Shown here piece by piece: positions 1,337 through 63,920 of a stretch of 64,000 nucleotides of DNA (position 1 is the stretch's first letter; each line of letters opens with the position of its first letter). This DNA comes from an uncultured Bacilli bacterium (lineage in GTDB: Bacteria; Bacillota_I; Bacilli_A; RF39; UBA660), in the NCBI GenBank assembly GCA_947624565.1, contig CANQKX010000001.1, forward strand, positions 44,587-108,586. The letters are read 5' to 3'. Under the pieces are notes generated by a model. That model saw only the letters and a program-made list of their open reading frames with translations. It was not told the DNA's origin and made no database searches. The translations under genes were made by a program, and so were the position numbers.

Positions 1337-1360
1337 CCATAGATAAAGGAGGTTGTTTAT

Positions 1361-1480: not shown

Positions 1481-1500
1481 TTACTTCTTTATTACTACTA

Positions 1501-1535
1501 AAAAATAAGATTAACCAACAATTAATCTTATTTTT
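1501..1535. terminator. bidirectional intrinsic terminator between the convergent agrBD and agrAC units
   Basis: Perfect 14-bp inverted repeat AAAAATAAGATTAA / TTAATCTTATTTTT with a 7-nt loop CCAACAA. U-runs follow on both strands. The stem overlaps the agrC stop codon (1534-1536). Confidence 0.6.
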
Positions 1536-6669: not shown

Positions 6670-6723
6670 ATTTTTTCACCTCATTTTAAGTTTGGTGAAA
6701 AATTTAAATTTTATACATATTTT

Positions 6724-11563: not shown

Positions 11564-11583
11564 TTCTTATTCCTCCTTTAAAA

Positions 11584-23505: not shown

Positions 23506-24111
23506 TTAACTATTATTTGATAATAAAGATATCAATGTTAAATTTGCAATATAAAAGGTCCATTCTATGCAATGACAAATAATTTTTAAATTTGTAGATA
23601 AATCAAATTTTCTTATAATTACAATATTTATATCACATACTAAAAGACATAATATAGCAACTAAAAATAATATTGATATTCTTTTTAATCTTATTTTTTT
23701 AATCGTTAAAAATATATTTATAATTACTATTAAACCATATAATATAGCCTCAACTATCAATATTTTTTTATCAAGTATTAAACATATAATAAAATTTATT
23801 ATTGATAGTAATAAGATTTTATTTGATTTATCTTTAATAAAAAAGAAATAAAATATCTGAACTATTATAAAAGAAGATATTCCTAATACTGATTTTTTTA
23901 TTAATATAAAAAAGATATCTGCTAAAAAAGAAAATATTAAAGATAAAGTTAAGTAAAAATTTACTTTATTTGATTTAATTCTGTTTATTAAAATATATAT
24001 AATACTTATCAATGTAGGAAAAATCTTAATAATATCAAAATTCGTACTATTTACAAAATTAATGATAATTATAATTAAGAAAATTATTTGAAAAAAAATA
24101 TATAAATACAT
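23506..24111 (-). CDS. hypothetical polytopic membrane protein
   Basis: ~6 predicted TM helices and no recognisable motif. First gene of the insertion between mnmG and mnmE. Confidence 0.35.
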   Translation of the reverse strand: MYLYIFFQIIFLIIIIINFVNSTNFDIIKIFPTLISIIYILINRIKSNKVNFYLTLSLIFSFLADIFFILIKKSVLGISSFIIVQIFYFFFIKDKSNKILLLSIINFIICLILDKKILIVEAILYGLIVIINIFLTIKKIRLKRISILFLVAILCLLVCDINIVIIRKFDLSTNLKIICHCIEWTFYIANLTLISLLSNNS

Positions 24112-24174
24112 TTTAACACCTTCATTACTTTAAATTATGATGTGTATTAATAATGTTTTTATACATTTTTATTG

Positions 24175-24672
24175 CTATTGTACAGCATATAAATATTCAA
24201 TACTTGTTATCTCATTATTGTTAATAATAAAATTTAATTGTGTTTTTTGTTTTGTATATGTATACATATTATCTATTTTCTCATAATCATCTCCATATGT
24301 TTTTTTCATTTTATCAAATGAATCAGTTATTTTTATTCCTTCTTTAGTTTTTACATTTTCATCTAAAAAATAAATTGAATATATTTTATCTTTGTCATTA
24401 TCAGAAAATGTTGTAACTTCATAACTTCCATAATTAAATGTTTTATCAAGTCCTTCAAATGCGCAAGACTCAACCTCTGTATAATCTTCAGGTTGTCCAT
24501 ATTTTTCTATTGAAAAAACTTCTCCTAATTTCATCGTTTTTCCATTATGTTCAAATTCATATAATTGAATTTCATCTTTTTGTTTTTGATTATAATTACA
24601 ACCAAATAATACTCCTATTAAAAATAATGTTATAAAAATTTGTTTTATTTTTTTCATAGAATCCTCCTTCAA
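24175..24672 (-). CDS. hypothetical lipoprotein (lipobox LFGC)
   Basis: Signal peptide ITLFLIGVLFG|C followed by a small globular domain. Its start overlaps the downstream end of the preceding gene by 4 nt. Confidence 0.45.
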   Translation of the reverse strand: MKEDSMKKIKQIFITLFLIGVLFGCNYNQKQKDEIQLYEFEHNGKTMKLGEVFSIEKYGQPEDYTEVESCAFEGLDKTFNYGSYEVTTFSDNDKDKIYSIYFLDENVKTKEGIKITDSFDKMKKTYGDDYEKIDNMYTYTKQKTQLNFIINNNEITSIEYLYAVQ

Positions 24673-25673
24673 TATCTTATATCATTGTAATACATATTTA
24701 TCTTTTTTTGATATATTTTATTAATTTTTTCATTTTTCCTATAATCTATCAAATCGTAGTTTTCTTTTAATATATTTGAAAAATATTTTGATAATTTTGT
24801 TGCACCTGATAAATTAAGATGTAAACCTCCATCATATGTATCTAAATTATAATTTATCCCTATTTCATTTGATATACTGGCAAAATTATAATATTGTAAA
24901 TTATTTTTCCTTGAATATTCTTGAATTTGTGTTTCATATTCTTCATACCAATATGGATATAAACTAGGTGCTTTTATAAGTATTAATTCTATATTATTTT
25001 TTTTACATAAAGAAACAATCTTGTCAAGGTATGAATAATCTATATCTGAAAAACTATAATTTGAAAGAATTTTTTTTGAAGGTAGTGAAGTATAAGGTTT
25101 TACATTAGTATTTATTAAAAAACCATTATGTGTATTTTTTTTTCTTTTAAATAAATATTCAAAATCTTCTTTTGTTAATTTGTCATATCTAGAATGATAC
25201 CTTATTATTGGAAATAAATAGGAGATAAAAGTTTCATCTTTTAACATTGAATTATTTATAATTTCTATTTTTTCTTTTGACCATTTCATTTTATCTATTG
25301 TTAACCTATTATAAGCTTCACTTACAGGCTTATTATATCTCATAGAATTAACATTAAATACCACTACTTTTGGCTTTTCATATTTTAAAGTTTCTTTTAA
25401 TATAGAATAAGATTGCCATATCAATTGTTGAGGTGTACCTCTTACATAAGAAGAAATTCCTTCTTCTTCATACATAACAATAGGAGAAAAATTTGCATAT
25501 ACTTCACAATCTCCTATAAAAATTACATCATGAGGAACTTCTTCATCGTAGTATTCTGATATCATTGATCCCTCTATTAGATTTGTTGCATATTTTGGAG
25601 AAAAAAGAATATTTAAAAATATAAATATAAGTGTAAAAGAAAATATTATAAGAAAAGTTTTTATATACTTCAT
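24669..25673 (-). CDS. SGNH/DltD-like (AlgX/PatB-like) putative O-acyltransferase partner protein, membrane-anchored
   Basis: N-terminal TM anchor then an extracytoplasmic domain, encoded immediately downstream of the MBOAT protein. This is the conserved MBOAT+SGNH pairing (DltB/DltD, PatA/PatB). Sequence-level family assignment is tentative. Confidence 0.4.
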   Translation of the reverse strand: MKYIKTFLIIFSFTLIFIFLNILFSPKYATNLIEGSMISEYYDEEVPHDVIFIGDCEVYANFSPIVMYEEEGISSYVRGTPQQLIWQSYSILKETLKYEKPKVVVFNVNSMRYNKPVSEAYNRLTIDKMKWSKEKIEIINNSMLKDETFISYLFPIIRYHSRYDKLTKEDFEYLFKRKKNTHNGFLINTNVKPYTSLPSKKILSNYSFSDIDYSYLDKIVSLCKKNNIELILIKAPSLYPYWYEEYETQIQEYSRKNNLQYYNFASISNEIGINYNLDTYDGGLHLNLSGATKLSKYFSNILKENYDLIDYRKNEKINKIYQKKINMYYNDIRY

Positions 25674-33138: not shown

Positions 33139-33666
33139 TTAATTTTGTGATAACTTTTTTTCTTTATTTTTTCTTTCTGAAATTATTTCTTCTAATACTT
33201 CATCACATATTCCTTCAATTTTTTTGATTGATTCTTTATTTCTTTGGGTGTGACATAAATCAACAAAATAATTATATGATTCTTCGTCTGCTTCTTTATA
33301 TTGGCTTATATCCACATAAGATCTTACATATCCCTTTCTATTATAAGTTGAGGCTATATTTCCTTGAACATCATAAAATGAATAACCAATTTTAACTACA
33401 GAATGAAAATCATTTGAAGCTGATGTATAAATTTTTGAATCATTTTCAAAAATCTTATTCAACATATGTGAAAAATAGTAACAACTTCCTTCCATAAATA
33501 TTGACATTGTAAGTTGATATTTTGTATCTTCGTCTAATTTTTGAAAATCAGAATCAGAATCAAGATATTTTTGAGAAAATTTACTTATAATTGAATCAAT
33601 TACATCTAAAATAGGTTCACTTTGCTTATTTATTAACTCTGATACTTTTTTAAAATAATCTTCCAT
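33139..33666 (-). CDS. hypothetical cytoplasmic protein (no recognisable family) heading the rpmH-rnpA transcription unit
   Basis: 175 aa, acidic/aromatic-rich, no TM. Occupies the position where rpmH normally faces dnaA. Confidence 0.4.
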   Translation of the reverse strand: MEDYFKKVSELINKQSEPILDVIDSIISKFSQKYLDSDSDFQKLDEDTKYQLTMSIFMEGSCYYFSHMLNKIFENDSKIYTSASNDFHSVVKIGYSFYDVQGNIASTYNRKGYVRSYVDISQYKEADEESYNYFVDLCHTQRNKESIKKIEGICDEVLEEIISERKNKEKKLSQN

Positions 33667-33773: not shown

Positions 33774-35135
33774 ATGATAAATATTAAAACTGATTCAAGA
33801 AAAGTTAAGGAAGGAGATACTTTTATAGCAATTAAAAATGTTAATACTGATGGACATGATTTTATTAATCAAGCAATTGAAAATGGAGCTAAAAAAATAA
33901 TTTGTGAACATGGAGAATATCCTGTTGAAACTGTAATTGTTAATAATACAAAAGAATTTTTAAATAAATATTTATATGATAATTATTATGAAAAAATTAA
34001 AGATATGAAATTAATTGGTGTAACAGGAACCAACGGAAAAACAACTATTTGTTATTTAGTTTATCAAATATTGACATTACTTAATAAAAAATGTGCATAT
34101 ATAGGAACAATTGGTTTTTTCTGTGGAAATATAAAAAGAGAATTGAATAACACAACTCCTGATACAGATTTATTATATGAAATGTTTTTAGAAGCAAAAG
34201 AAAATAATTGTGAATATATTGTTATGGAAGTAAGTAGTCATGCCCTTGATAAAAATAGAATTTATGGATTAGAATTTGATGAAGTAGCCTTTACAAATCT
34301 TACACAAGACCATTTAGATTATCACAAAACTATTGAAAATTATATTGAAGCAAAAAAGAAATTATTTTTTAGAACTAGAAATAATAAAATTGCTATTATA
34401 AATGCTGATGATAAATATTATAAAAATTTTCTAAATAAAGATAATAAAAATATTTTGATAAGTGAAAATAATGCAGATTTATCTATTAAAAAAATTAATT
34501 TATCTCATCTTAATACTAATATCATATTTAACTTTGAAAATATTGAATATGAAACTACAATAAATATGATAGGAAAATATAATGTTTATAATTTTTTAAC
34601 AGCCTTGTTACTTGTAAATAAATTAGGATTTGATATAAAAGATATCTTAAAAATTACAAATAAATTAAATGCTCCAAATGGTAGAATGGAGTTAATAAAA
34701 TATAAAACAAATAGTATTTTTATTGATTATGCACATACCCCAGATGCTGTTTTAAATGTTTTAGAAAATGCTAAAGAATATAAAAAAGGAAAAATTATAA
34801 CAATTATTGGTTGTGGAGGGGATAGAGATAGATCAAAAAGACCAATAATGGGAAAAATTGCTGAAGAAAATTCTGATTTTGTTATTTTTACTAATGATAA
34901 TCCAAGAACAGAAGATGAAAATCAAATTATGAATGATATTATTAATGGGTTAAGTAAAAAAAATCATGAAATAATTTTAGATAGAGAAGAGGCTATAAAA
35001 AAAGGAATATCCTTATTAAATAATAATGATATATTAATGGTTTTAGGAAAAGGGCATGAAGATTATCAAATAATTGGAAATACAAAATATCATTTTAGTG
35101 ATAAAGAAATAGTTTTGAAATATATTAAAATATAA
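33774..35135 (+). CDS. murE: UDP-N-acetylmuramoyl-L-alanyl-D-glutamate--2,6-diaminopimelate (or L-lysine) ligase MurE
   Basis: Mur ligase P-loop GVTGTNGKTT and a DNPR-type C-terminus (FTNDNPRTED). Slightly short N-terminus. Confidence 0.85.
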   Translation: MINIKTDSRKVKEGDTFIAIKNVNTDGHDFINQAIENGAKKIICEHGEYPVETVIVNNTKEFLNKYLYDNYYEKIKDMKLIGVTGTNGKTTICYLVYQILTLLNKKCAYIGTIGFFCGNIKRELNNTTPDTDLLYEMFLEAKENNCEYIVMEVSSHALDKNRIYGLEFDEVAFTNLTQDHLDYHKTIENYIEAKKKLFFRTRNNKIAIINADDKYYKNFLNKDNKNILISENNADLSIKKINLSHLNTNIIFNFENIEYETTINMIGKYNVYNFLTALLLVNKLGFDIKDILKITNKLNAPNGRMELIKYKTNSIFIDYAHTPDAVLNVLENAKEYKKGKIITIIGCGGDRDRSKRPIMGKIAEENSDFVIFTNDNPRTEDENQIMNDIINGLSKKNHEIILDREEAIKKGISLLNNNDILMVLGKGHEDYQIIGNTKYHFSDKEIVLKYIKI

Positions 35136-35146
35136 GGAGTCTATGT

Positions 35147-36526
35147 ATGAAAAAGATTTTAATAAAAGATATTTTAAATATATGCAATGCAGAATTATTT
35201 TTTGGAAAGAAAAATTTAATATGTAATTATTTTTCTAATGATACTAGAAAAATAAAAAAAGGGGATATATACATTGGTATTAAAGGAAATAACTTTGATG
35301 GAAATAAATTTTATGATGATGCTTTTCAAAAAGGCGCAAAAGCATGCATTTTAGAAAAAAAATATTTTGATAAAAATAATTTTGATAAAATAAAATATAA
35401 AAATAAAACTATAATTCTTGTTGATAATTCTATTGAAGCCTTACAAAAAATTGCAGAGTATAAACGTTCTTTATATAATATACCAGTAATAGCAGTAACG
35501 GGTAGTGTTGGTAAAACAAGTACAAAAGATATAATTGCAAGCACATTAAGTGAAAAATATAAAGTTTTGAAAACTGAAGGTAATTATAATAATCATATTG
35601 GTTTACCATTAACTATATTAAAGTTAAATAAACATAATGCAATGGTTTTAGAAATGGGAATGAATAATTTAGGAGAAATTCATTTATTAAGTAAAATTGC
35701 TAAACCTACAATTGCAGTTATTACAAATATAGGAACAGCTCATATTGGTAATTTAGGATCTAGAGAAAATATATTAAAAGCAAAACTTGAAATTACAGAT
35801 TTTTTAGATGAAAATGGAGTTCTTATTATAAATAATGATAATGATTTATTACACGAAAATTTAAATTTCTTAAAAAATAAGTTAAAATTAATTACAATCG
35901 GTATTGAAAATGATAGTGATTTTATAGCAAAAAATATTAATTTTGATATATTTAAAAGTAAATTTGAAATAGAAAATAACGTAATAAAAATAAATGTAGG
36001 AGGATATCCTTATATTTATAACTCTTTATTTGCATATTCTATTGGTAAATATTTAAATATTAAAGAAAATAAAATAATAAAAGGAATAGAAAATTTTAAA
36101 TTATCAAATAATAGAATGGAAAAAATAATTAATAATAAGGGAATAACTATTATAAATGATACATATAATGCTAGTTATGATTCAACTATATATGCCATTG
36201 ATTTAGTTGATAAATCTAATTATAAAAGAAAAATTTTATTACTTGCAGACATCTTAGAACTTGGTAAATTTTCTAAAGAAATCCACAGTAAAATAGGTAA
36301 TTATATTATTAATAAAAATATAGATTATGTAATTTTGGTGGGTAATGAAGTAAAATATATTAAAGATATTTTAGAAAAAAATAATTTTAATAATATATAT
36401 TTATTTAATAAAGAAGAAGAAACTTATGACTTTTTAGATAACTTTTTACAAAAAGAAGATATTATATTAATAAAAGGTTCTCATGCAATGAATTTAATTA
36501 ATATTGTTAACTATTTAAAAAAGTGA
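35147..36526 (+). CDS. murF: UDP-N-acetylmuramoyl-tripeptide--D-alanyl-D-alanine ligase MurF
   Basis: P-loop AVTGSVGKTSTK and a Mur ligase middle and C-terminal domain. A terminator hairpin AAGTGAA-aataaa-TTCACTT plus T-run overlaps its stop (36520-36548). Confidence 0.85.
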   Translation: MKKILIKDILNICNAELFFGKKNLICNYFSNDTRKIKKGDIYIGIKGNNFDGNKFYDDAFQKGAKACILEKKYFDKNNFDKIKYKNKTIILVDNSIEALQKIAEYKRSLYNIPVIAVTGSVGKTSTKDIIASTLSEKYKVLKTEGNYNNHIGLPLTILKLNKHNAMVLEMGMNNLGEIHLLSKIAKPTIAVITNIGTAHIGNLGSRENILKAKLEITDFLDENGVLIINNDNDLLHENLNFLKNKLKLITIGIENDSDFIAKNINFDIFKSKFEIENNVIKINVGGYPYIYNSLFAYSIGKYLNIKENKIIKGIENFKLSNNRMEKIINNKGITIINDTYNASYDSTIYAIDLVDKSNYKRKILLLADILELGKFSKEIHSKIGNYIINKNIDYVILVGNEVKYIKDILEKNNFNNIYLFNKEEETYDFLDNFLQKEDIILIKGSHAMNLINIVNYLKK

Positions 36527-36540
36527 AAATAAATTCACTT

Positions 36541-36740
36541 TTTTTGTGGAAAAAATATGACTTTTTTATTATAATATAAGGAAAAATTTAATTATAAACA
36601 TTATCAACATATTTGTGGATAAATATAAAATATTTATAAACATGTTGTTTATATAAAATTTGTGGAAATTGTGGAAAACTATAGAATTTTATTATTTTAT
36701 AACAATTTTTATAAACTTTTATTGTTGATAATTTTTTAAC
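36541..36740. promoter_or_regulatory. oriC-associated DnaA-box cluster and dnaA promoter region
   Basis: DnaA-box 9-mers: TGTGGATAA perfect at 36614-36622; one-mismatch boxes TTATCAACA (36601), TGTGGAAAA (36545, 36670), TGTGGAAAT (36661) and TGTTGATAA (36723). Confidence 0.65.
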
Positions 36741-36814
36741 ACATTATTTTTTTGTTGAAATAAAAGAAAAATAGGTTATAATTAAGTTATAAATACTTCA
36801 GGGGAGATGATAAT

Positions 36815-38185
36815 ATGAACATTGATAATATTTGGAATCAATTTTTAAATATAATAAAAACAAGATTATCTTCTCTTTCATATAATACTTGGTTTAGCTC
36901 GTCTAAACTTGTTGAATTAAATGAAGAACATGCTGTTATAATTGTTCCAACGATTGCTCATAAAAAACATTTATCTGAATCATATATAGATATTATAAAT
37001 GAAATATTTAATGATATAACAGGAACTAATTTTAATATTGAATTTGTATTAGAAAATGAATATGAAAAAAATAAAAATCAAACTAGTAAAAATATTGAAA
37101 ATGATATAGAAGAATATGGTGTTCCTTATAATAGTAGTGAGAAAGCTAATTTAAATCCAGATTATACTTTTGAAAATTTTATAGTAGGTGAAAGTAATAG
37201 ATTTGCACAAGCGACTGCTCTTGCTGTTGCTGAAAATCCTGGAAAAATGTATAATCCTTTATTTATATATGGAAATAGCGGATTAGGTAAAACCCATTTA
37301 ATGCAAGCAATTGGAAATTATATAATAAAAAATAGTAATAAAAGAGTATTATATGTTACTAGTGATCAATTCATCAATGATTTTCTTGGTTTAAATAAAA
37401 AAGATAAAGATGGAACTAATTTTGATTATGTTGAAATATTTAAAGATAAATATAGAAATATAGATGTATTAATTATTGATGATATTCAATTTTTAGGGAA
37501 TGCTCCAAAAACACAAAATGAATTTTTTCACACATTTAATACATTATATGATGATAAAAAACAAATAATTATTTCTTCTGATTCTTCTCCTGATGATTTA
37601 AAACATTTAGAGGATAGGTTAAGAACAAGATTTAATTGGGGATTAAAAGTAAATATTTTTCCACCTGATAATAATCTTAGAAAAGAAATATTAAGAAAAA
37701 AAATGGCAAATATGGATTTTTCTAGACATATTACTGAGGATGCGATTGATTATATTGCTAACATGTGTGCTTCTGATGTAAGAAGTTTAGAAGGTGCTTT
37801 AACAAGAGTTTGTGCTTATTCAACTATCTTTTTTGAAGAAGAAATTACACTTGATCTTGCTGTTGAAGCTTTAAAAGGAACAATTTCTCAAACTTCTAAC
37901 TTTAAAAACGATATTCAAAAGATACAAAGAATTGTTGCTGAATATTATAATGTATCTGTTGAAGATTTAAAATCAAAAAAAAGAGTAGCAAGTATTGCTT
38001 TTCCTAGACAAATTGCTATTTACTTATCAAGATTATTAACTGATGAATCATTTCCAAGAATTGGTATGGAATTTGGAGGAAGAGATCATTCAACTGTAAT
38101 TCATTCATGTGATAAAATTGAAAAAGAAATTAAAAATAATAAGCAATTAGAAAAAATAATAGAAGAAATTAAATTAAAATTATAA
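36815..38185 (+). CDS. dnaA: chromosomal replication initiator protein DnaA
   Basis: AAA+ Walker A GNSGLGKTHL, DnaA signature and a C-terminal DNA-binding domain. Confidence 0.95.
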   Translation: MNIDNIWNQFLNIIKTRLSSLSYNTWFSSSKLVELNEEHAVIIVPTIAHKKHLSESYIDIINEIFNDITGTNFNIEFVLENEYEKNKNQTSKNIENDIEEYGVPYNSSEKANLNPDYTFENFIVGESNRFAQATALAVAENPGKMYNPLFIYGNSGLGKTHLMQAIGNYIIKNSNKRVLYVTSDQFINDFLGLNKKDKDGTNFDYVEIFKDKYRNIDVLIIDDIQFLGNAPKTQNEFFHTFNTLYDDKKQIIISSDSSPDDLKHLEDRLRTRFNWGLKVNIFPPDNNLRKEILRKKMANMDFSRHITEDAIDYIANMCASDVRSLEGALTRVCAYSTIFFEEEITLDLAVEALKGTISQTSNFKNDIQKIQRIVAEYYNVSVEDLKSKKRVASIAFPRQIAIYLSRLLTDESFPRIGMEFGGRDHSTVIHSCDKIEKEIKNNKQLEKIIEEIKLKL

Positions 38186-38363
38186 TATGTTGAAAAGTTT
38201 AAGTTATCTACATTTTAATTAACAATAATAAACAGACAAAAATTCTATAAAATGTTATAAAATAAAGAAAATTTATACTTTTAAACATTTTAAACAGTAA
38301 TAATAAAAATAAAATCATTAAATTAATAATATATATGATATAATTCATTGTAGGAGGTTTAAA
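38186..38363. promoter_or_regulatory. dnaA-dnaN intergenic region: DnaA box plus AT-rich putative DNA-unwinding element
   Basis: TTATCTACA (38204-38212, one mismatch) followed by >100 bp of >85% AT. Confidence 0.4.
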
Positions 38364-39485
38364 ATGAAGTTTAGCATTAAAAAAGAAATATTATTAGAAA
38401 ATTTAAATAATGTATCAAAGGCAGTATCAACAAAAAATGTTATACCTGTTCTTGGAGGAATTAAATTTAATTTAACTAAAGAAGGATTATTTTTAACAGC
38501 TACTAATAGTGATATAGATATAGAAAGTTTTATTGATAAAAAATATATAGATAAAATAGAATCAACAGGAACAATTATTATTCAAGGAAAATATCTTCTT
38601 GAAATAATTAGAAAATTACCGGATGGTCTTATTAATATAGAAATAATAGATGGATTAAAAATATTAATATATACTCAAAATTCAAATTTCAATTTAAATG
38701 GTATTGATTCATCAGAATTTCCTAATATAAATTTAGATATATCTACAAATCCTATTATACTAAGTAAGAGAGTAATAAAAAATATAATTAATCAAACTTT
38801 ATTTGCAACATCTATGCAAGAAGCAAGACCAATATTAACAGGAATTAATATAAAAATAGAAAATGATAAAATGGAATGCGTTGCAACAGATTCATATAGA
38901 CTAGCAAAAAAAGTGGTTAATTTAGATAATAGTGTAGATAATTTAATAAATATAGTTATTCCTGGAAAAAATATTGGAGAACTTAATAAAATATTAACTG
39001 ATGATGATGATAATGTTGAAATACATATATTTTCTAATAAAATATTATTTAAGTTTGATAATTTATTATTTCAATCTAGATTATTAAATGGAACTTTTCC
39101 TGATACTTCAAGATTAATTCCAGATGAATTTGAAATAGAGATAAAAGCTGATTTAAATGAATTCTTTGGTGTAATTGATAGAGCAGCTTTATTAACATCT
39201 GAAAAAGAGAAAAATGTAATAAAGTTTGAAACAAACAAAAATGAAGTAACTGTAAGTTCAAATACTCCAGAAATAGGTAGAGTAGAAGAAAAATTAATGG
39301 TTACTAAAAATAATGATAAAGAAATAAAAATATCTTTCTCATCTAAGTTTATGATGGAAGCATTAAGAACAATTAATAGTAAAGATATAAAAATATTATT
39401 AAATTCTGATATAAAGCCAATTATTTTAAAAACTGACGAAGATGATGGTTTAACACAATTATTATTACCTATTAAGACATATTAA
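38364..39485 (+). CDS. dnaN: DNA polymerase III beta sliding clamp
   Basis: MKFSIKKEILLENLNNVSKAVS...; three-domain clamp, 373 aa. Confidence 0.95.
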   Translation: MKFSIKKEILLENLNNVSKAVSTKNVIPVLGGIKFNLTKEGLFLTATNSDIDIESFIDKKYIDKIESTGTIIIQGKYLLEIIRKLPDGLINIEIIDGLKILIYTQNSNFNLNGIDSSEFPNINLDISTNPIILSKRVIKNIINQTLFATSMQEARPILTGINIKIENDKMECVATDSYRLAKKVVNLDNSVDNLINIVIPGKNIGELNKILTDDDDNVEIHIFSNKILFKFDNLLFQSRLLNGTFPDTSRLIPDEFEIEIKADLNEFFGVIDRAALLTSEKEKNVIKFETNKNEVTVSSNTPEIGRVEEKLMVTKNNDKEIKISFSSKFMMEALRTINSKDIKILLNSDIKPIILKTDEDDGLTQLLLPIKTY

Positions 39486-39600
39486 AAGAAAAAAATGTAT
39501 TTTTTCTTTTTTTATCCTAAAAATCGACAAATTTTGCGAAAAAAAGTGTTATTAATATAGGCAAATTATTATTTTTAATAATTTTAAAGGAGGGGATTTT

Positions 39601-40047
39601 ATGGAACAATATGAAATAAATTCTAAAACAATAGCTCTTATACCAATTGAAGAAAATATGAGTAAAGTAATTGAAGAGGATAATTCTTTTGTAGTAAAAA
39701 TGAAGACTATGGAAATTATAAAAAGAAGTTGTGAATATTTTGGAAGTACTTATTTAGGAAGACATATAGGAACAAAAAAATTAACTGGAATTTCTTATAA
39801 ATCTCCAATAATAATTGAAGAAAGTAAAAATATTATATATTTTCCAACTTCATCACCAAGACAAAATGAATGTATATGGATGTCATTAAAACATATATTA
39901 AATTATAAAGAAAATAATGGTAAATCAATAGTATTCTTTGAAAATGGTGAGAATATAGAAATAGATGTATCATATAATTCTTTTGATAATCAATACTTAA
40001 GAGCTACAAAATTAGAATCTATTTTAAGAAAAAGAAAAATGAATTAA
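39601..40047 (+). CDS. comK: ComK-family transcription factor (short form, 148 aa)
   Basis: Matches B. subtilis ComK blocks: YEINSKTIALIPIEEN ~ YEVNGATIAVLPEE; RSCEYFGSTYLGRHIGT...SYKSPIII...IYFPTSSPRQNECIWMS ~ RSCRFFGSSYAGRKAGT...SHKPPIMV...FLFPTLSSTRPQCGWIS; ISYNSFDNQYLRA ~ ISYNSFENQVYRT. RBS AAAGGAGGGG. Confidence 0.65.
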   Translation: MEQYEINSKTIALIPIEENMSKVIEEDNSFVVKMKTMEIIKRSCEYFGSTYLGRHIGTKKLTGISYKSPIIIEESKNIIYFPTSSPRQNECIWMSLKHILNYKENNGKSIVFFENGENIEIDVSYNSFDNQYLRATKLESILRKRKMN

Positions 40048-40183
40048 TACAAAAATAATAAATTTTTGTATTTTTTTATAAAAAAGTAAAAAAAAGCCCT
40101 ATTTTGTGTTATAATTATATTGTGTGTATAGTAGCATTATTTTAGTATAAAGGTGATAATATGGTCATAAAAATAGGTTTAAA

Positions 40184-41290
40184 ATGTTTCTAGAAAAAAT
40201 TGAACTTAAAAATTTTAGAAATTATTCAAATTTAAAATTAAATTTTGATAAAAATATAAACATTTTTATAGGAAATAATGCTCAGGGGAAAACCAATATA
40301 TTAGAAAGTATATATTTTTTATCAATTACTAAATCTCATAGAACAAATAAAGAAATCTTTTTGATAAAAAATAATGAGATTTTTTCCAAAGTCACAGGAA
40401 TTATTAAAGACAATTCAAATTTTTCAAAAAAATATGAAATTATTATTAATAAACAAGGTAAAAGAGTACTTATTAATGATAATCTTATAAAAAAGATAAG
40501 TGATTACTTATCTAATATAAATGTTGTAATGTTTTGTCCAGATGATTTAGAGATAATAAAAGGTACTCCTTCTAATAGAAGATCTTTTCTAAATATTGAA
40601 ATAGGACAATTAAACAATTTTTATATAAAACATTTAAATAATTATAATAGACTATTAAAAACAAGAAATGATTATTTAAAAAATAGTAAAGAAAAGTTTG
40701 ATAATGTTTATTTTGAGATATTGACTAATAAATTAATTGACGAAAATATAAAAATAATTAATTTTAGAAATGAATTTATTAATAATTTAAATAAATATAT
40801 TTCTAAAATATATAAAGACATAACAGGTAAAAAAAATATATACTTAAAATACGAAACTTTTATAGATATTAATTCAGAAGAAAATATGATTAAATCTATG
40901 AAAGAAAAATACGATAAAAATTTAAATAATGAAATATTTCAGGGGGTTACTCTATTTGGTACACATAAAGATGATTTTTCGGTATACATAGATGATATAA
41001 AAATAAATAATTATGGATCTCAAGGACAACATAGAATTGCAATATTATGTATTAGATTATCAGAGATTGAGATATTTAAAAAAGAAAAAAAGAAAAATCC
41101 TATATTATTATTGGATGATATATTCAGTGAATTAGATGAAATTAAAAAAAATAATATTATTAGATATATAGATAATGATTTACAAGTTTTTATAACATCT
41201 ACAGATATTGAAAATATAGATAATAAATTGCTTAAAAATTCAAATATTTTCTATGTAAAAGAAGGAAACGTAATAAGAAAGGAAGATTAG
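40184..41290 (+). CDS. recF: DNA replication and repair protein RecF
   Basis: Walker [15 protein letters not shown] and an SMC-like signature. Confidence 0.9.
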
Positions 41291-41294
41291 AGTT

Positions 41295-43214
41295 ATGACA
41301 GATAATAATTATGATGCTTCAGCAATACAAGTACTAGAAGGTTTAGAAGCAGTAAGAAAAAGACCAGGTATGTATATAGGAACAACAGATGTTAAAGGAT
41401 TACATCATTTAGTATGGGAAATAGTTGATAATGCAATAGATGAAGCTCTAGCTGGTTATTGTAAAAATATTGAAATAATAATAAATAAAGATAATTCAAT
41501 AACTGTAAAAGATGATGGACGTGGAATTCCTGTAGGTATACATAAAAAAACTGGAATATCTACCGTTGAAACAGTTTATACAGTACTTCATGCCGGTGGT
41601 AAATTTGGAGGAGGAGGATATAAAGTATCAGGAGGACTTCATGGTGTAGGAGCATCTGTAGTTAATGCATTATCAAGTTCAGTAGTAGTAACAGTTTATA
41701 AAGATGGAAAAATATATGAAGTAAAGTTTGAAAATGGTGGAAAAATAAAACAACCTTTAACTGTTGTTGGAGAATGTGATAAAAATAGAACAGGAACAAC
41801 AGTTACTTTTAAACCAGATGCAGATATTTTTGATACTGAAATATATGATTATGAAACATTAAAGGTTAGAACAAGAGAACTTGCTTTCTTAAATAAAGGA
41901 TTAAGATTAACATTAAGAGATGATAGAAAAGGTGATAGTACAACAGGAGAAACTTTTATTTATGAGGGTGGTATTAGTGAATATGTAAAATTTTTAAATA
42001 AAAATAAAACTCCTATTCATGAAGAAATAATTCATTTAGAAGGAGAAGAATCAGGTGTTATGTTCGAAGTTGCAATGCAATATAATTCTAGTTATACAGA
42101 TAATATATATTCATTTGTAAACAACATAAATACACATGATGGTGGAACTCATGAAGAAGGAGTAAAAAGAGCCTTAACTAGAATAATTAACAATTATGCA
42201 AGAAAAAACAATATATTAAAAGAAAAAGATGAGTCTTTAACAGGTGATGATGTTAAAGAAGGGTTAACAATGATTATTTCTTGTAAACACCCAAATCCAC
42301 AATTTGAAGGACAAACAAAAGGAAGACTTGGAAATTCAGAAGTTAGAAAAATAGCAGATAATGTTTTTGCAGGTGGTTTTGAAAGATTTTTAATGGAAAA
42401 TCCAGATGAAGCAAGAATAATAGTAGAAAAAACAATGACTGCTGCAAGAGCAAGAGTAGCAGCTAAAAAGGCTAGAGAATTAACAAGAAGAAAAAGTGAT
42501 TTAGATGTAGTTAACTTTGGTGGAAAACTTAATGATTGTAAAGAAAAGGATCCAAGTGTTTGTGAAATATTTATAGTAGAGGGAGATTCAGCAGGAGGTT
42601 CTGCTATTAAAGGTAGAGATTCAATGACTCAAGCAATACTACCTCTTAGAGGAAAAATATTAAATGTAGAAAAGGCAAGAATTGATAGAGCATTATCAAA
42701 TGAAGAAATAAGAACAATAATTACTGCCTTTGGTACAGGAATAGGTGAAGAATTTGATTTAAATAAACTTAGATATAATAAAATAATAATAATGACGGAT
42801 GCCGATGTAGATGGATCACATATTAGAGTATTACTTTTAACTTTATTTTATAGATTTTTTAGACCTATTGTTGAAACAGGCCATGTGTATGCTGCACAAC
42901 CACCATTATTTTCTATAAGTCATGGAAAGACTATAAAATATGTTCTTAATGAAGAAGAAAGAGATGAGTATATTGCTTCATTAAATCCTAATACAAAATA
43001 TGAAGTAAAGAGAATGAAAGGTTTAGGAGAAATGGATGCAGAAGAGTTGAATGAAACAACAATGGATATTAATAAAAGAGTTCTTAGAAAAATAACAATA
43101 GAGGATGCCATAGCTGCAGATGAAGCTTTCTCAAAATTAATGGGTGAAGAAGTAGAACCTAGAAGGCAATTTATAGAAGAAAATGCAAAATATGCAGAAA
43201 ACTTAGATATATAG
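41295..43214 (+). CDS. gyrB: DNA gyrase subunit B
   Basis: GHKL ATPase, TOPRIM (EGDSAGG), C-terminal ...ENLDI. Confidence 0.95.
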
Positions 43215-43230
43215 GAAGGAGTATAAAATA

Positions 43231-45675
43231 ATGGATCATAGTAGAGATAGATTAGAAGAAAACAATATAGTAGATGAAATAGAATCATCTTTTATAGAAT
43301 ATTCAATGAGTGTAATTGTATCACGTGCTCTTCCAGATTTAAGAGATGGTCTTAAACCTGTTCATAGAAGAATTTTATGGTCAATGTATGAATCAGGATA
43401 TACTCCAGATAAGCCTCATAAAAAATCCGCTCGTATTGTTGGTGATGTTATGGGTAAATATCATCCACATGGAGATTCAAGTATATATGAAGCAATGGTT
43501 CGTATGGCTCAAGATTTTAGTTATAGAAATATGCTAGTAGATGGTCATGGAAATTTTGGTAATATAGAAGGTTATGGTGCAGCAGCAATGCGTTATACTG
43601 AGTCTAGATTATCAAAAATTTCACTTGAAATGCTTAGAGATATAAATAAAAACACTGTTAATTTTAAACCAAACTTTGATGAATCAGAAAAAGAACCAGA
43701 GATTTTACCATCTAGATTTCCAAATATATTAGTAAATGGAACAATGGGTATTGCTGTTGGTATGGCAACAAATATTCCACCACATAATTTAGGTGAAGTA
43801 ATAGACGGATGTATTGCATATATAGATAATCCAGAAATAGACACAGCAGGATTAATGGAATATATAAAAGGACCAGATTTTCCAACAGGAGGAATAATAT
43901 TAGGTAATAGTGGAATAAAAAAAGCATATGAAACAGGAAGAGGAACTATTACAATTAGAAGTAGAGCAAGAATAGAAGAAGAAAAAGGAAAACACTTAAT
44001 TATAATCGATGAGGTTCCATATGGTGTTAATACAATGGAATTAAAAAATAAGGTTGCAGAACTTGTTCATAATAAAACTATAGATGGTATTGCTGATTAT
44101 CATACAGACTTAAAAAATGGTGTAAAAATTACAATAACATTAAAGAAAGATGCAAATGCACAAGTTGTTTTAAATAATTTATATAAACATACATCATTTC
44201 AAACAAATTTTGGAATAATTTTCTTAATGTTAGATCAAGGAGTACCAAAAACTCTAGGACTTAAAGATATTATTTCAAAATATGTTGAATATCAAAAAGA
44301 AATAATTATAAGAAGAACAAAATTTGATTTAGATAAAGCTGAAAAAAGAGTTCATATTTTAGAAGGATTAAAGATTGCTTTAGATCATATAGATGAAGTT
44401 ATTAAATTAATAAGAGGTTCAAAAACAGATGAAGAAGCAAAATCTGGTTTAATGAATAAATTTGGTTTAAGTGAAGCACAATCAGATGCAATTCTTGAAA
44501 TGAAGTTAAGAAGATTAACAGGATTAGAAAGAGATAAAATTGAAAATGAATTAAATGAATTATTAGATAAAATAAATGAATTTAAATTAATTTTAGCATC
44601 TGATGAAAAAATATATGGAATTATCAAAACTGAATTGTTAGAAATAAAAGATAAATATAGTGATGATAGAAGAACAAGTATAGATATGACAGCAATAGAT
44701 TACATTGAAGATGAATCTTTAATTCCAGTAGAAGATATAATTGTAACTTTGACAAATAAGGGATATATTAAAAGATTAACAACAGATACATATAAAGTTC
44801 AAAATAAAGGTGGAGTTGGAGTAAAGGGAATGTCTACTAATGAAGAAGACTTCGTTGAACAAATGTTAACTCTAAAAACACATGATCATGTTCTATTCTT
44901 TACTAATAAAGGAAAAGTATATAGAATAAAAGGATATGAAATACCTGAATTTTCAAGACAAGCTAAGGGATTACCAATAATAAATCTATTACCAATTGAA
45001 AAAGATGAATTTGTAAAAGCAATATTACCAATAACTGTTGATGATGATATTGCTACAAAATTAGTAACTTTTGTAACAAAAAATGGTCTTGTAAAACGTA
45101 CTGATATATCAGAATTTGAAAATATAAGAAAAACCGGTAAAATAGCAATAAATTTAAAAGAAGATGATGAGTTATTATTTGTTAGCTTAACAACAGGAAA
45201 TGATGAAATTGTAATAGGTGCATCAAATGGTAGATTAGTAAGATTTAATGAAAATGAAATAAGAATTATGGGAAGAACAGCAAGTGGAGTAAAAGGAATT
45301 GATATACCAAATGGAGTTAATTGTGTAAGTGCAGAAAAAGTAAATAAAGAAAGTGATATATTAATAATTACTGAAAAAGGTTATGGAAAACGTACGAAAA
45401 TTGATGAATATAGATTAACTCATAGGGGAAGTAAAGGGGTTAAAGCATTAAATATAACAGAAAAAAATGGAAATTTAGTTTCAGTAAAAAATGTTAATGA
45501 AAATGAAGACTTAATGATTATAACAAACAGTGGTATTGTTATTAAAATTCCAGTTAATCAAGTATCAAAGATGAGTAGAGTAACTCAAGGTATAAGATTA
45601 ATAAATTTAAAAGAAAATCAAAAAGTTACCACAATTGCTACTACAAAAGAAGAAGAAGAGACTATAAATGAATGA
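43231..45675 (+). CDS. gyrA: DNA gyrase subunit A
   Basis: Catalytic Tyr region (AAMRYTE), a QRDR-like segment ([17 protein letters not shown]) and a GyrA-box beta-pinwheel C-terminus. Confidence 0.95.
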
Positions 45676-56418: not shown

Positions 56419-56943
56419 ATGAAATCAACAGGAATAACTAGAAGAATAGATGATTTAGGAAGAATCGTAATTCCAAAAGAAATAAGAAAAAATTTAAAGA
56501 TAAAAGAAAATGAAATACTAGAAATATTTATTGATAATGAAGAGATAATTTTAAAGAAATTTTCTTCATTTAGTGATATGGAAAAAATATTATTTAATTT
56601 TGCAGAAACTTTATACAAAATGACAGGTAATAATATATTTATAACTGATAGAGATAAAATAATCGCATGTAATGAAAGTAAAAAAGTTAATTATTTAAAT
56701 AAACAAATTGGTGAAACTATTAATTATGTAATAGAAAGTAGAATGCCTATTATATCTAATGATTTAGATAAACTAGAATTAAAAGAATCAGAAGAATTAA
56801 ATATAAATTATTATATTGTTCCAATAATTACTAATAGTGACATACTTGGAGTAGTTATAATAACTTCTAATAATAAAATAGATGAAGAAGATAAATTATC
56901 CATTAACATAGTATCAAAATTAATATCTAATTATATTGAATAA
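56419..56943 (+). CDS. spoVT: stage V sporulation protein T (AbrB-N + GAF-like domain)
   Basis: AbrB/MazE swapped-hairpin N-terminus MKSTGITRRIDDLGRIVIPKEIRKNL and a GAF-like C-domain. Follows mfd as in Bacillus. Confidence 0.8.
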   Translation: MKSTGITRRIDDLGRIVIPKEIRKNLKIKENEILEIFIDNEEIILKKFSSFSDMEKILFNFAETLYKMTGNNIFITDRDKIIACNESKKVNYLNKQIGETINYVIESRMPIISNDLDKLELKESEELNINYYIVPIITNSDILGVVIITSNNKIDEEDKLSINIVSKLISNYIE

Positions 56944-59109: not shown

Positions 59110-60159
59110 ATGACAAAAGAAGATTACAAAAAGTTAAACGAATATTTAAATGAAATTTTTTTATATCTTTCCAAAAATGATTCTTTTTTTCTTAATAATA
59201 TGCAATATTTTGCGGTTATGAGTGAAAAATATTTGAATTTTATATCTAAATATGATTTAAAATTAAAAAAAATACCAGATTGTTTAACTTTTATTGAAAT
59301 ATATGATATAACAAGAGAAATAATAAAAAGTATAAATGATGAATATTTAAAAGAATATGATAAAATTCTAGATAATGGTGTATTAGGTTTTGATTATTCA
59401 ACTCTAGAGGGTGATTTTAAAACAGATTTAAGCGCTTTTAATAGTGTAAATGGCAATAAAGAAATAATTTTGAGAACCAATTTTAACTATGAGTCGGTTA
59501 CTACATTAGTTCATGAATTTATGCATTATATAAATGATTGTGATACAATAAATAGATATCTTTTGACAGAGTTTATCTCAATTAGTTGTGAAGAGTATGC
59601 AAGAAGATATCTAGTAAATAAAGGAATAAATAAGGAATTATTGCAATATGATGATAGACTTATTGAAGCAAAAAAAATAGCACGAGAAATTAATTTTTAT
59701 ATTAAATATTTAATTTTATTTGATAAATTTGGACCATTAGATGAAAATGGTTATATATTTATAAATGAAAATGTATGTCCTATTAGCAGGGAAACATATG
59801 AATCAGATTGTCTATTTATACTAGATATATTAAGAAAAAAAGAAGATAAGTATAAATACAATATAAAATATAATATTCAAAATCAAGGTAGTTTAGATGA
59901 AATATTGTCTCATGAAATATCTTATGGGTATAGATATTTTTTTGGAGATTTATTAAGTTTTTATTGTCTAGAATTTAATGATATTAAAGATATAGTAAAT
60001 TTATGTGATTATTTGGATAAAAATTATAATATAGTAGATTTACTAAAACAATGTAAAATTTATATTGAGGATGAAGATTTTTATCAGAAAATTAATAAAA
60101 GCATTGAAGGTCATATAAATTTTTATAGTGGGGAAGCAAAAAATTTAAAAAGCAGGTGA
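59110..60159 (+). CDS. hypothetical cytoplasmic protein with an HExxH zinc-metallopeptidase-like motif
   Basis: 349 aa, no TM; TLVHEFMHYINDCD is the only recognisable motif; M3-like at best. Confidence 0.35.
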   Translation: MTKEDYKKLNEYLNEIFLYLSKNDSFFLNNMQYFAVMSEKYLNFISKYDLKLKKIPDCLTFIEIYDITREIIKSINDEYLKEYDKILDNGVLGFDYSTLEGDFKTDLSAFNSVNGNKEIILRTNFNYESVTTLVHEFMHYINDCDTINRYLLTEFISISCEEYARRYLVNKGINKELLQYDDRLIEAKKIAREINFYIKYLILFDKFGPLDENGYIFINENVCPISRETYESDCLFILDILRKKEDKYKYNIKYNIQNQGSLDEILSHEISYGYRYFFGDLLSFYCLEFNDIKDIVNLCDYLDKNYNIVDLLKQCKIYIEDEDFYQKINKSIEGHINFYSGEAKNLKSR

Positions 60160-61740: not shown

Positions 61741-61803
61741 CTTCATTTTTTTATTTTCATAAAATATAGTGTGTATAAGTCCATTGGGAGTGTGATAAAT
61801 ATA

Positions 61804-62586
61804 ATGATTAATGTAGGGGATGTTGTATCAAGAAATAAATACAATAATGATATGTTATTTAAAGTTGTTAAAATAGAAGATGATATATATTATTTAACAG
61901 GAATAGAAATAAGATTATGCGCAGATAGTAATTTATCAGATTTAAAAAAAGAAGATATAGTATTAGAAGATAGTAGCAATGATGATGAAAGATTATTAGA
62001 ATCACTAAATAACAATATAACAGAACAACGAGATGATTTTTTTTATATACCGGGCAAGATATTGCATATTGATGGGGATAATGAGTATCTAAAAAGATGT
62101 TTAAAATTTTATAAAAGTGCTGGATTAACTGCATATGGTGTATATGAAAAAGAAGAAAATTTATATAGAAATATTACTAAATATTTGGAAGATATAAAAC
62201 CAGATATAGTAATAATTACAGGTCATGATGCATATTATAAACAGAAAGGTGCGGATGAAAGAACATACAAAAATAGTGATAATTTTGCTAAGGCAATAAG
62301 GGTAGCAAGAAAATATGAAAAATCATATGATAAGTTGAAAATAATTGCTGGTGCTTGTCAATCAAACTATGAAGAGTTAATAAGTGCTGGTGCAAATTTT
62401 GCATCTAGTCCCAAGAGAGTAAATATACATGCCTTAGATCCTGCTATTATTGCAATTTCAATATCCAAAACTGAAAATACTAAAGAATTAAATATAATTG
62501 AACTACTTAATAAAACAAAATGTGGAAAAGATGGAATTGGTGGAATAAAATCTTATGGTAGTATGTATGTCGGTTATCCAAGATAA
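61804..62586 (+). CDS. yabG: sporulation-specific protease YabG
   Basis: MINVGDVVSRNKYNNDMLFKVVKIE...IRLCADSNLSDL matches the YabG N-terminus MQFQIGDMVARKSYQMDVLFRIIGIE...VRLIADSDFSDL. The track's start (61771) adds 11 aa with no RBS. Confidence 0.7.
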   Translation: MINVGDVVSRNKYNNDMLFKVVKIEDDIYYLTGIEIRLCADSNLSDLKKEDIVLEDSSNDDERLLESLNNNITEQRDDFFYIPGKILHIDGDNEYLKRCLKFYKSAGLTAYGVYEKEENLYRNITKYLEDIKPDIVIITGHDAYYKQKGADERTYKNSDNFAKAIRVARKYEKSYDKLKIIAGACQSNYEELISAGANFASSPKRVNIHALDPAIIAISISKTENTKELNIIELLNKTKCGKDGIGGIKSYGSMYVGYPR

Positions 62587-62594
62587 GGTGATCA

Positions 62595-62798
62595 ATGTAT
62601 CAGGATAAAAAAGAAGAATTATTAAAATTAAAGGGAAAAAATGTGACTGCTATAATAGATGAAGGAAGAAGTAGAAAAAGGATAGAAAAAGCAATAATAA
62701 AAGATGTATATGACAGAATTTTTACAATAGAAATAAATAACATGATTACATCATTTAGTTTTTCTGATTTAATTTGTAAAACAATTATACTAAAATAA
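62595..62798 (+). CDS. veg: Veg-family biofilm/sporulation-associated small protein
   Basis: ...GRSRKRIEKAIIKDVYDRIFTIEINNMITSFSFSDL follows the Veg pattern [24 protein letters not shown]...SYSYADIL. RBS AAGGTGA. Confidence 0.65.
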   Translation: MYQDKKEELLKLKGKNVTAIIDEGRSRKRIEKAIIKDVYDRIFTIEINNMITSFSFSDLICKTIILK

Positions 62799-62847: not shown

Positions 62848-63234
62848 ATGAAAAAAACAGGATTTACTTTGGTAGAATTATTAGCAGTTATATTTATAAT
62901 ATCATTGATATCAACATTAGCTTTTGTTACAGTTGAAAAAAAAGGGGAACAATTTAAAGATATATCATATAAAAAATTTGAAGATATGATAATAACATCT
63001 GCAAAAGAGCATATATCTAGTAATTATAATATTGATAATACTCTTAAAAGTGGTAAGAAAGTCACAATATCATTTGAAGATTTAGTAAATTCAAACAAAT
63101 TAGACAGCAAAAATTTACAAAACCCAAAGACAAATAATAAAATAGATATAAGTGCCTCAAATGTAACCATAAGTTATGTTGATTATAAATATAATTATGT
63201 AGTTAATATAGTAGATATTCAAAGCGATAATTAA
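62848..63234 (+). CDS. prepilin-type N-terminal cleavage/methylation-domain protein (type IV pilin / competence pseudopilin-like)
   Basis: Class III signal MKKTG|FTLVELLAVIFIISLISTLAFV (G-F-T-L-x-E), then a small C-terminal globular domain. RBS AGGTGA. Confidence 0.65.
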   Translation: MKKTGFTLVELLAVIFIISLISTLAFVTVEKKGEQFKDISYKKFEDMIITSAKEHISSNYNIDNTLKSGKKVTISFEDLVNSNKLDSKNLQNPKTNNKIDISASNVTISYVDYKYNYVVNIVDIQSDN

Positions 63235-63305: not shown

Positions 63306-63563
63306 ATGAAAGTTACATCAGTAAAAGTTAAAAAAATTGAAAAAGAAAATTCTAGAATGAAAGGACTTGCTTCTATATTATTAGATGATATGATAGCTAT
63401 TCATGATATTAGAATAATATCAGGCGATAATGGATTATTTGTAGCTATGCCTAGTAGAAAAACAGCAACAGGTGATTATAGAGATATAGTTCATCCTATT
63501 TCACAAGAAGCAAGAGATATAATTGAAGGCGCAATTATAGAAGAATATAATTCACAAGAATAA
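63306..63563 (+). CDS. spoVG: septation/sporulation regulator SpoVG
   Basis: MKVTSVKVKKIEKENSRMKGLASILLDDMIAIHDIRIISGDNGLFVAMPSRKT closely matches B. subtilis SpoVG. The ATG at 63306 follows GGAAGGAG. Confidence 0.85.
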   Translation: MKVTSVKVKKIEKENSRMKGLASILLDDMIAIHDIRIISGDNGLFVAMPSRKTATGDYRDIVHPISQEARDIIEGAIIEEYNSQE

Positions 63564-63632
63564 CTCTTATTTAAGAGTTTTTTTGTTCTAAAAAAATTGT
63601 ACAAGCATATTATCTACTATAAGGAGGATAAT

Positions 63633-63920
63633 ATGGAAATAGTAAAAGATGTTAATACAAATCTAAACCATTCATTTTCAGTATCAGAAAGAAAGAACAT
63701 AATAATATCAGGAGTTGTAAAAATAGATAGTTTTGATAATGAAGAATTTTTGATTGAAACAGTTCAGGGATATATGAATATAAAGGGAGAAAATTTAGAA
63801 GTAGTAAAACTTGATACTTATCAAGGAAATGTTACAATAAAAGGAAGAATTGATGCATTAAGTTATATAGATGAGAATGCAAAAAAAGAATCCTCTGTTT
63901 TTACTAGATTATTTAAATGA
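63633..63920 (+). CDS. yabP: sporulation protein YabP
   Basis: ISGVVKIDSFDNEEFLIETVQGYMNIKGENLEV matches the YabP core (LDGIVNVISFDDQEIIVETVQGVLTIKGEGLHI). The start at 63633 follows AAGGAGG. Confidence 0.65.
   Translation: MEIVKDVNTNLNHSFSVSERKNIIISGVVKIDSFDNEEFLIETVQGYMNIKGENLEVVKLDTYQGNVTIKGRIDALSYIDENAKKESSVFTRLFK

Follow-up and report, generated by a model that had tools for sequence, protein, structure and literature searches.

A lineage-wide short ComK gene between dnaN and recF in RF39, with a promoter architecture that points to Spo0A control

We analysed a 64,000-nucleotide stretch of contig CANQKX010000001.1 (assembly GCA_947624565.1, from an uncultured Bacilli bacterium), referred to below as the window, in which a ComK-family gene, comK, lies between dnaN and recF at 39601..40047 on the forward strand and encodes a short, core-only transcription factor of 148 amino acids. 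What makes the gene notable is the combination of its features: across the order RF39 it is embedded beside the replication origin, it encodes a ComK that is without the C-terminal tail and under housekeeping-level constraint, and it has a promoter architecture that points to control by Spo0A. The best overall explanation, in our judgement, is that 39601..40047 is a functional gene for a predicted DNA-binding transcription factor of the ComK family, fixed in the origin-proximal cluster of RF39, and that phosphorylated Spo0A would switch it as cells pass into stationary phase or sporulation. ComK would then bind A/T-rich sites and control a stationary-phase regulon, most plausibly one made up of DNA uptake and recombination genes. 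We put the probability of this explanation as a whole at roughly 0.6.

Assignment to the ComK family

The 148-residue product matched Pfam PF06338 over almost the entire profile (positions 1-151 of 152), with an E-value of 2.2e-49 and a score of 167.5 bits against a cutoff of 22.3. ComK was the sole above-threshold Pfam match, and no S4 domain was found in the protein by the same search. BLASTP alignment to B. subtilis ComK (192 amino acids) gave 42% identity over residues 9-157 (E = 4e-41); the protein also aligned with long-form homologues, a result that is independent of the B. subtilis sequence. A set of 403 ComK homologues, each of about 150 amino acids, already bears the name 'competence protein ComK' at NCBI and JGI, and NCBIfam and PDB sequence searches with the window protein returned nothing informative. 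The assignment to the ComK family is secure. It had been made in an earlier reading of the DNA alone (the original prediction), and both the membership and the block-for-block alignment with the ComK core described there are borne out by the profile search and by the identity to B. subtilis ComK.

Position in the origin-proximal cluster

The gene order in the window is dnaA-dnaN-comK-recF-gyrB-gyrA, all on the forward strand, with comK as the second gene after dnaA. The cluster starts with dnaA (36815..38185), an open reading frame whose homologues flank comK in related loci. The immediate neighbours, dnaN (38364..39485) upstream and recF (40184..41290) downstream, are open reading frames with Pfam DNA_pol3_beta domains and SMC_N/AAA domains, respectively, in orthologous loci, and gyrB and gyrA follow at 41295..45675. 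The switch in GC skew falls at about 32-36 kb of the window, which places comK a few kilobases from the replication origin, so that the earlier description of the gene as lying inside the origin core holds in rough terms.

This placement is a lineage trait of RF39. Among 80 species-representative loci, dnaN and/or recF directly flank comK in 69 and both genes do so in 64, and in a metagenome scan seeded with a ComK 37% identical to that of the window, all seven informative loci (7/7) had the order dnaN-comK-recF. The 11 exceptions among the 80 (L033, L047, L049, L052, L055, L059, L062, L064, L077, L080 and L085) form a single clade nested among origin-linked sequences. In this clade, comK is intact and lies after ligA or before gatCAB, with its promoter cassette retained in the form of a degenerate TTCGATA or TTCTACA box, a TGnTATTTT element, a duplicated palindrome (GAAATTATAATT) and a ribosome-binding site. 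Because the exceptions nest together and have kept this cassette, they would be accounted for by one relocation or duplication from an origin-linked ancestor. Three loci carry unrelated, non-S4 inserts between dnaN and comK, namely a 203-amino-acid low-complexity membrane protein (L012 and L013, 4228-4839) and an unrelated 256-amino-acid protein (L061, 4137-4907); these inserts, which fill an additional 0.9 kb in L012 and L061, do not part comK from its own promoter.

We take the slot between dnaN and recF to be occupied in Bacillus by the S4-domain gene yaaA (YaaA/RlbA). RF39 comK shares this slot and its orientation but has neither a sequence relationship to YaaA/RlbA nor an S4 domain. The original prediction had described the usual S4 gene as replaced by comK; comK does fill the yaaA slot, but this is no one-off, as the order is conserved across the lineage. 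A derivation of comK as an S4/YaaA remnant was considered and rejected, with Pfam showing no S4 domain in the gene product and the L012 and L061 inserts being unrelated proteins. It had also been proposed that universal presence at this locus in non-competent relatives, under a different assigned function, would speak against the ComK reading. The gene is indeed near-universal at the locus in relatives, but the copies found there are annotated as ComK as well.

The comK promoter and leader

The promoter analysis was based on 70 aligned dnaN-comK spacers (8.7 kb in total), which comprise 67 unique spacers. Tandem copies of TTCGACA recur in these spacers, as in TTCGACAAAATTCGACAAAATTCGACAA of L068. 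On the forward strand, 43 exact copies were counted, against 0.12 expected from shuffles; the retrieved loci as a whole (817 kb) contain 64 copies on that strand, most of which are thus the ones in these spacers. The commonest spacings between copies are 10 bp (17 times) and 20 bp (11 times), and the boxes fall in three registers, whose distances to a downstream extended -10 element, TGnTATAAG, are about 11, 21 and 31 nt. Most species have one to three boxes per promoter; a box with at most one mismatch is present in 54 of the 67 unique spacers, and two or more phased boxes in 23 of them. The array also occurs in two independent distant loci (L087 and L088), and in some species two further boxes, inverted relative to each other, surround the transcription start.

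TTCGACA is the exact reverse complement of TGTCGAA, the core of the Spo0A box (0A box), which is common to Bacillus and Clostridioides and in which G2, C4 and G5 are contacted in a base-specific manner (PMC3485338). Because of this correspondence, and because the lineage is predicted to sporulate, a Spo0A-switched comK is considered the likeliest mechanism, and the factor that binds the boxes is most likely Spo0A. Such gating has a precedent, since the B. subtilis comK promoter is under direct Spo0A control through multiple 0A-type sites, both activating and repressing (PMC3297582). The B. subtilis sites are scattered and imperfect, whereas those of RF39 form a near-perfect tandem with a 10-bp period. 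The RF39 array resembles known Spo0A promoters in its exact TGTCGAA core (PMC3485338). In the abrB and spoIIG promoters, tandem head-to-tail 0A boxes with a 10-bp period overlap the -35 region, features that the RF39 array shares; it differs from them in that as many as three predicted boxes, spread over about -25 to -50, precede an extended -10.

The window itself has a single imperfect Spo0A-type box, ATCGACA (39523..39529; 6/7 to TTCGACA), which occupies the second of the three registers and lies 20 nt upstream of the -10 hexamer. It is followed on the forward strand by the extended -10 TGtTATTAA (39547..39555), which aligns with the TGnTATAAG column of the 67 unique spacers, by a leader hairpin, AAATTATTA-TTTT-TAATAATTT (39563..39584; free energy dG -4.1, z -3.4), and by the ribosome-binding site GGAGGGG (39589..39595), which corresponds to a G-rich block conserved before the start codon in all spacers.

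An inverted repeat between the -10 and the ribosome-binding site was found in every sub-clade, with a stem sequence that differs from one to the next (CAGACGCATTTC/GAAATATGTCTG, ATACTTGTTAT/ATAACAAGTAT or, in some species, TTCGACA/TGTCGAA). The leader was assessed by an alignment-free folding z-score, a crude inverted-repeat finder being too noisy in A/T-rich DNA. Compared with dinucleotide shuffles, the 60 nt upstream of comK gave a mean folding z of -1.26 (p = 6e-11, 64 species), as against -0.06 for the recF leaders used as controls. The simplest reading of the repeat is a stem-loop that would form at the 5' end of the comK mRNA; in species with 0A half-sites for arms, the structure might also serve as a predicted Spo0A site around the transcription start. 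An Rfam search of 36000-41500 matched neither leader to a family, and no tRNAs were found in the window.

The comK gene is a transcription unit of its own, insulated on both sides, since terminator-like hairpins flank it and recF-gyrB-gyrA has a separate promoter. Both terminator-like hairpins are on the forward strand and combine an 11-bp stem of A/U pairs with a U-run: one follows dnaN at 39484..39513 (dG -6.3, z -3.1; hairpin core by folding 39484-39510) and the other follows comK at 40046..40079 (dG -6.7, z -3.5; core 40046-40072). Their positions are conserved across species. A G+C-based terminator scan reported no terminators and missed both hairpins, because they consist of A/U pairs only. 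The terminator and promoter flanks that had been ascribed to comK from the sequence at the outset were in this way recovered, in the form of the A/U hairpins on either side, the extended -10 and the GGAGGGG ribosome-binding site.

The recF-gyrB-gyrA promoter (40107..40136, forward strand) comprises the extended -10 TGtTATAAT (40107-40115) and the leader start GTATAGTAGCA (40126-40136). It falls within a block, TTTTrTGnTATAAT-N8-GTATAGGAGTA (40100-40136 in the window), that is near-universal in the comK-recF spacer of the 72 origin-linked loci and far better conserved than its surroundings, and this block may represent a candidate gyrase-operon promoter of RF39. Downstream of it, a 10-codon upstream open reading frame with its own AAGGTGA ribosome-binding site (40161..40193, forward strand) overlaps the recF start codon by 10 nt. 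Its C-terminal (V/I)KIGLK and its overlap with recF are conserved in the sub-clade of the window, with a variable N-terminal length, and the overlap suggests translational coupling to recF.

Protein form and constraint

The comK open reading frames are intact, at about 147-154 amino acids, in essentially all complete loci. Median identity to the corresponding window protein is 55% for ComK, 59% for DnaA, 56% for DnaN and 48% for RecF, and 36 columns are invariant in an alignment of 62 ComK sequences. By these comparisons, ComK in RF39 is under strong constraint, comparable to that on DnaA and DnaN.

An exhaustive search with phmmer over 1.84 billion cluster representatives recovered 1198 ComK-family members at E<=1e-3, with a bimodal length distribution (about 146-157 amino acids versus about 180-216), so that the short forms constitute a large subfamily. 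When the two classes were aligned, the long ComKs were seen to add a short N-terminal extension and a C-terminal tail of 30-40 amino acids. Compared with B. subtilis ComK, which belongs to the same Pfam family and shares about 42% identity in the core (residues 9-157), the RF39 protein is without the N-terminal 8 amino acids and the C-terminal activation tail of about 35 amino acids; the window ComK stops at the core helix (residue 148). B. subtilis ComK from which the last 25 amino acids have been removed no longer activates PcomG but still binds DNA (PMC3128618). In light of this role of the tail, RF39 ComK would keep the DNA-binding core while being without the known activation region.

An AlphaFold2 model computed from the 62-sequence alignment (window 39601-40044; predicted local distance difference test, pLDDT, 94; predicted template-modelling score, pTM, 0.87) consists of a single domain with a beta-rich core, two helices and a long C-terminal helix (residues 125-147) at the very end of the protein. 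The best matches of the model among solved structures are LytTR DNA-binding domains (3d6w, AgrA and pneumococcal ComE). These matches are weak (best E = 7e-3, template-modelling scores of 0.42-0.55) and gain no support from profile comparison, so the likeness is only a lead; if real, it would assign ComK a DNA-binding fold.

Host lineage and sporulation genes

The window has a G+C content of about 22% (78% A+T). The comK homologues come from uncultured metagenome-assembled genomes (MAGs) labelled Bacilli, Mollicutes or Tenericutes. Clostridium sp. CAG:433 and CAG:1193 are among the sources, as is Candidatus Coprovivens, and those carrier genomes that are circular measure 1.20-1.26 Mb. Ca. Coprovivens belongs to family CAG-1000 of the order RF39, and CAG-433 is likewise an RF39 family (PMC8035907); both families are thus represented among the comK carriers, and the window DnaA shares 89% identity with its CAG:433 counterpart. 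The genome had originally been described as Clostridia-like, a label that has to be corrected, as its relatives belong to class Bacilli, order RF39. The taxonomic surprise of finding a ComK here is gone with it, because ComK is expected in class Bacilli.

RF39 has been described as an auxotrophic lineage with highly reduced genomes (PMC6784871); sporulation has been predicted for it, and spo0A is reported to be an absolute requirement for that process (PMC10868615). The window encodes SpoIID, SpoIIR, SpoVT, YabG, YabP and SpoVG as well as an M23 peptidase that resembles SpoIIQ; these sporulation-associated genes (6034-7659, 12852-13385, 56419-56943, 61771-62586 and 63306-63920) sit in a Bacillus-like origin-proximal order. 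This gene content is consistent with the published prediction of spore formation in RF39, and the earlier statement that the genome carries sporulation genes proved correct. No spo0A was seen among the genes of the 64-kb window.

Observations that weigh against the main explanation

Several results count against a comK that is switched by Spo0A and controls DNA uptake. K-boxes and the comG, comE and comF operons had been suggested from the outset as the signatures to look for. K-boxes of types I and II (at most one mismatch, spacing 8 or 18) were absent from the 64-kb window, where about 0.7 per type would be expected and where the A/T-rich composition leaves the scan little power. K-box-like hits do occur in the comK spacers; they are no commoner there than in recF control spacers, they arise from terminator T-runs and A/T flanks, and spacings of 8, 18 or 31 are not favoured among them. 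An apparent enrichment over mononucleotide shuffles vanished against these real control spacers, and the hits were discarded as a sign of autoregulation. The window likewise contains no comG, comE or comF genes, and neither comC nor other DNA-uptake genes were found in it besides a lone prepilin-type gene. The protein, moreover, is without the C-terminal region that is required for activation by B. subtilis ComK (PMC3128618). The missing tail, the lack of K-boxes and the lack of comG, comE and comF genes in the window lend indirect support, and no more than that, to the original suggestion that this regulator may govern something other than DNA uptake.

The boxes themselves also call for caution. 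The window and its closest relatives have the degenerate ATCGACA box, the nearest relatives ranging from an exact box to none, and the relocated comK copies have degenerate boxes too. With its array reduced by decay to a single 6-of-7 box, the window genome makes a less certain case for Spo0A control than the lineage does. That this genome has a spo0A is inferred from the RF39 literature, every comK carrier is an uncultured MAG, and the Spo0A sites are predictions made from sequence. Boxes at about -25 to -50 could fit activation or repression alike, and the box-binding factor could also be an unrelated response regulator with direct repeats as its sites.

Alternative explanations

The TTCGACA repeats might instead be DnaA boxes that spill over from oriC, or sites for some other regulator that binds direct repeats. 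Direct repeats phased at 10 bp are typical of winged-helix response regulators, and the phasing seen here would fit such a protein as well. Because the locus adjoins oriC and the consensus sequences of the 0A box and the DnaA box resemble each other (PMC5295017), the DnaA alternative was tested. In the TGTCGAA orientation, 86 of the 92 instances have C at position 4 and none has the G that a DnaA box requires, and on this diagnostic position a DnaA-box cluster (TTATNCACA / TGTGNATAA) was rejected. The mean match is 6.5/7 to the 0A box versus 5.8/9 to the DnaA box, only three exact DnaA boxes occur in the 67 spacers, and the relocated comK copies took box-like elements along with them, away from oriC. 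Boxes that serve a factor other than Spo0A are regarded as rather improbable. The same neighbourhood raises the idea that the oriC-proximal position is functional, with comK dosage rising when forks stall or initiation is frequent and so reporting replication status. It would agree with a comK within a few kilobases of the skew switch and with a position that distant relatives and 69 of the 80 species have kept, despite the inserts between dnaN and comK. A precedent exists in comCDE of S. pneumoniae, an auto-inducible competence regulator beside oriC whose relative dosage rises under replication stress (PMC8394987). The likeness to RF39 is that of a competence-type regulator gene adjoining oriC, but comCDE is an unrelated two-component system with a peptide pheromone and a demonstrated auto-induction loop; no such loop is evident in RF39. 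Reporting by dosage would depend on positive feedback or a threshold, and the scans turned up no K-boxes that would point to autoregulation; one clade moved comK, intact, to the ligA/gatCAB locus, so the position is not essential; and the dnaA-gyrA cluster is so stable that a gene lodged in it may persist by linkage alone. Given the lack of evidence for a feedback loop and the relocation in one clade, we keep origin dosage as a doubtful rival, or as an addition to Spo0A control.

The gene order dnaA-dnaN-recF-gyrB-gyrA is among the most conserved in bacteria. It may be, then, that an ordinary comK was inserted once into this stable cluster in the ancestor of RF39 and has been inherited passively since, a view that also suits the existing 'competence protein ComK' names at NCBI and JGI and the commonness of ComK in Bacilli. 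What it leaves unexplained is why ComK should be conserved as well as DnaA and DnaN in much-reduced genomes of about 1.2 Mb (PMC6784871), and why the promoter array and leader hairpin have been maintained; we consider passive inheritance possible but on the unlikely side. A further alternative concerns the direction of regulation, in that the short ComK could be a repressor or anti-activator that dampens its targets, as the second, shorter ComK of B. cereus and that of S. aureus are reported to do. RF39 ComK ends after the core helix where the long forms carry a further 30-40 amino acids; loss of the tail ends activation of PcomG and not binding, and the naturally short ComK2 of B. cereus, which is without 22 amino acids, lowers comG expression (PMC3128618). 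ComK2 of S. aureus represses competence, as the title of PMC12491500 has it, and the 146-157-amino-acid forms are a large subfamily. RF39 ComK resembles these ComK2 proteins as a family member that lacks the activation region, or in their case acts negatively on competence (PMC3128618; title of PMC12491500), and is even shorter than they are. In B. cereus and S. aureus, however, the short form coexists with a full-length activator, ComK1, whereas in RF39 it appears to be the sole ComK, the only copy seen per locus. Being sole and strongly conserved, the RF39 protein is more likely a primary regulator, and activation could use a different surface; a repressor role is accordingly held to be unlikely.

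Relation to known systems and implications

With respect to B. subtilis, then, a Spo0A-switched comK in RF39 would share the family of the protein and the type of promoter control, and would differ in the absence of detected K-boxes from the comK promoter and in the location of the gene between dnaN and recF. The comparison suggests that Spo0A-to-ComK wiring predates the Bacillus lineage. A stronger version, in which an ancient Spo0A-to-ComK link is hard-wired in RF39, origin-embedded and replication-sensitive, and couples DNA uptake to sporulation entry or replication stress, strikes us as improbable at present. If it held, DNA taken up may supply nucleotides or repair templates in these auxotrophic genomes of about 1.2 Mb; alternatively, the regulon may be unrelated to competence.

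RF39 is a prevalent, uncultured and genome-reduced gut lineage with many auxotrophies and little published biology, and literature searches returned nothing relevant on RF39 competence or ComK, nor on a comK between dnaN and recF. The present analysis offers a concrete hypothesis by which stationary phase or sporulation might be linked to a ComK programme in RF39, and it delineates the short ComKs as a large subfamily that has received little study. Should competence in RF39 be real, it would bear on horizontal gene transfer in the gut and on the scavenging of DNA as a nutrient, and it could provide a route to genetic manipulation once isolates exist.

Other features of the window

The prepilin-type gene that had been noticed 23 kb downstream of comK (62848-63234) is real. 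It encodes 128 amino acids with an N_methyl motif (E = 6.7e-6) and a G/FTLVELL N-terminus, forms a lone insertion between veg (62595-62798) and spoVG (63306-63563), and has its own TGATATAAT extended -10 promoter, without a K-box; no other pilus genes were found in the window.

The window contains just two exact 0A boxes. One of them, TTCGACA at 503, precedes agrB by about 230 bp, in the region of an agr-like cluster (503-3488) that comprises agrB (731-1336, forward strand), a GHKL histidine kinase gene (1534-2835, reverse strand) and a response regulator gene (2832-3488, reverse strand), the product of which has a C-terminal half without a Pfam match.

Open reading frames without a Pfam match were noted at three places: two of 320 and 388 amino acids next to spoIIR (10598-12753), three of 200, 164 and 333 amino acids next to an MBOAT gene (23506-25673), and one of 349 amino acids between metS and tatD (59110-60159).

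Near the origin, there is one exact DnaA box upstream of the window dnaA (36614) and none in the dnaA-dnaN spacer. Between the strand switch and dnaA, the window carries murE and murF (33774-36526, forward strand) and a phage YunG-like gene (33139-33666, reverse strand); in the relatives, unlike in the window, rpmH-rnpA-yidC-jag directly abut the region upstream of dnaA.

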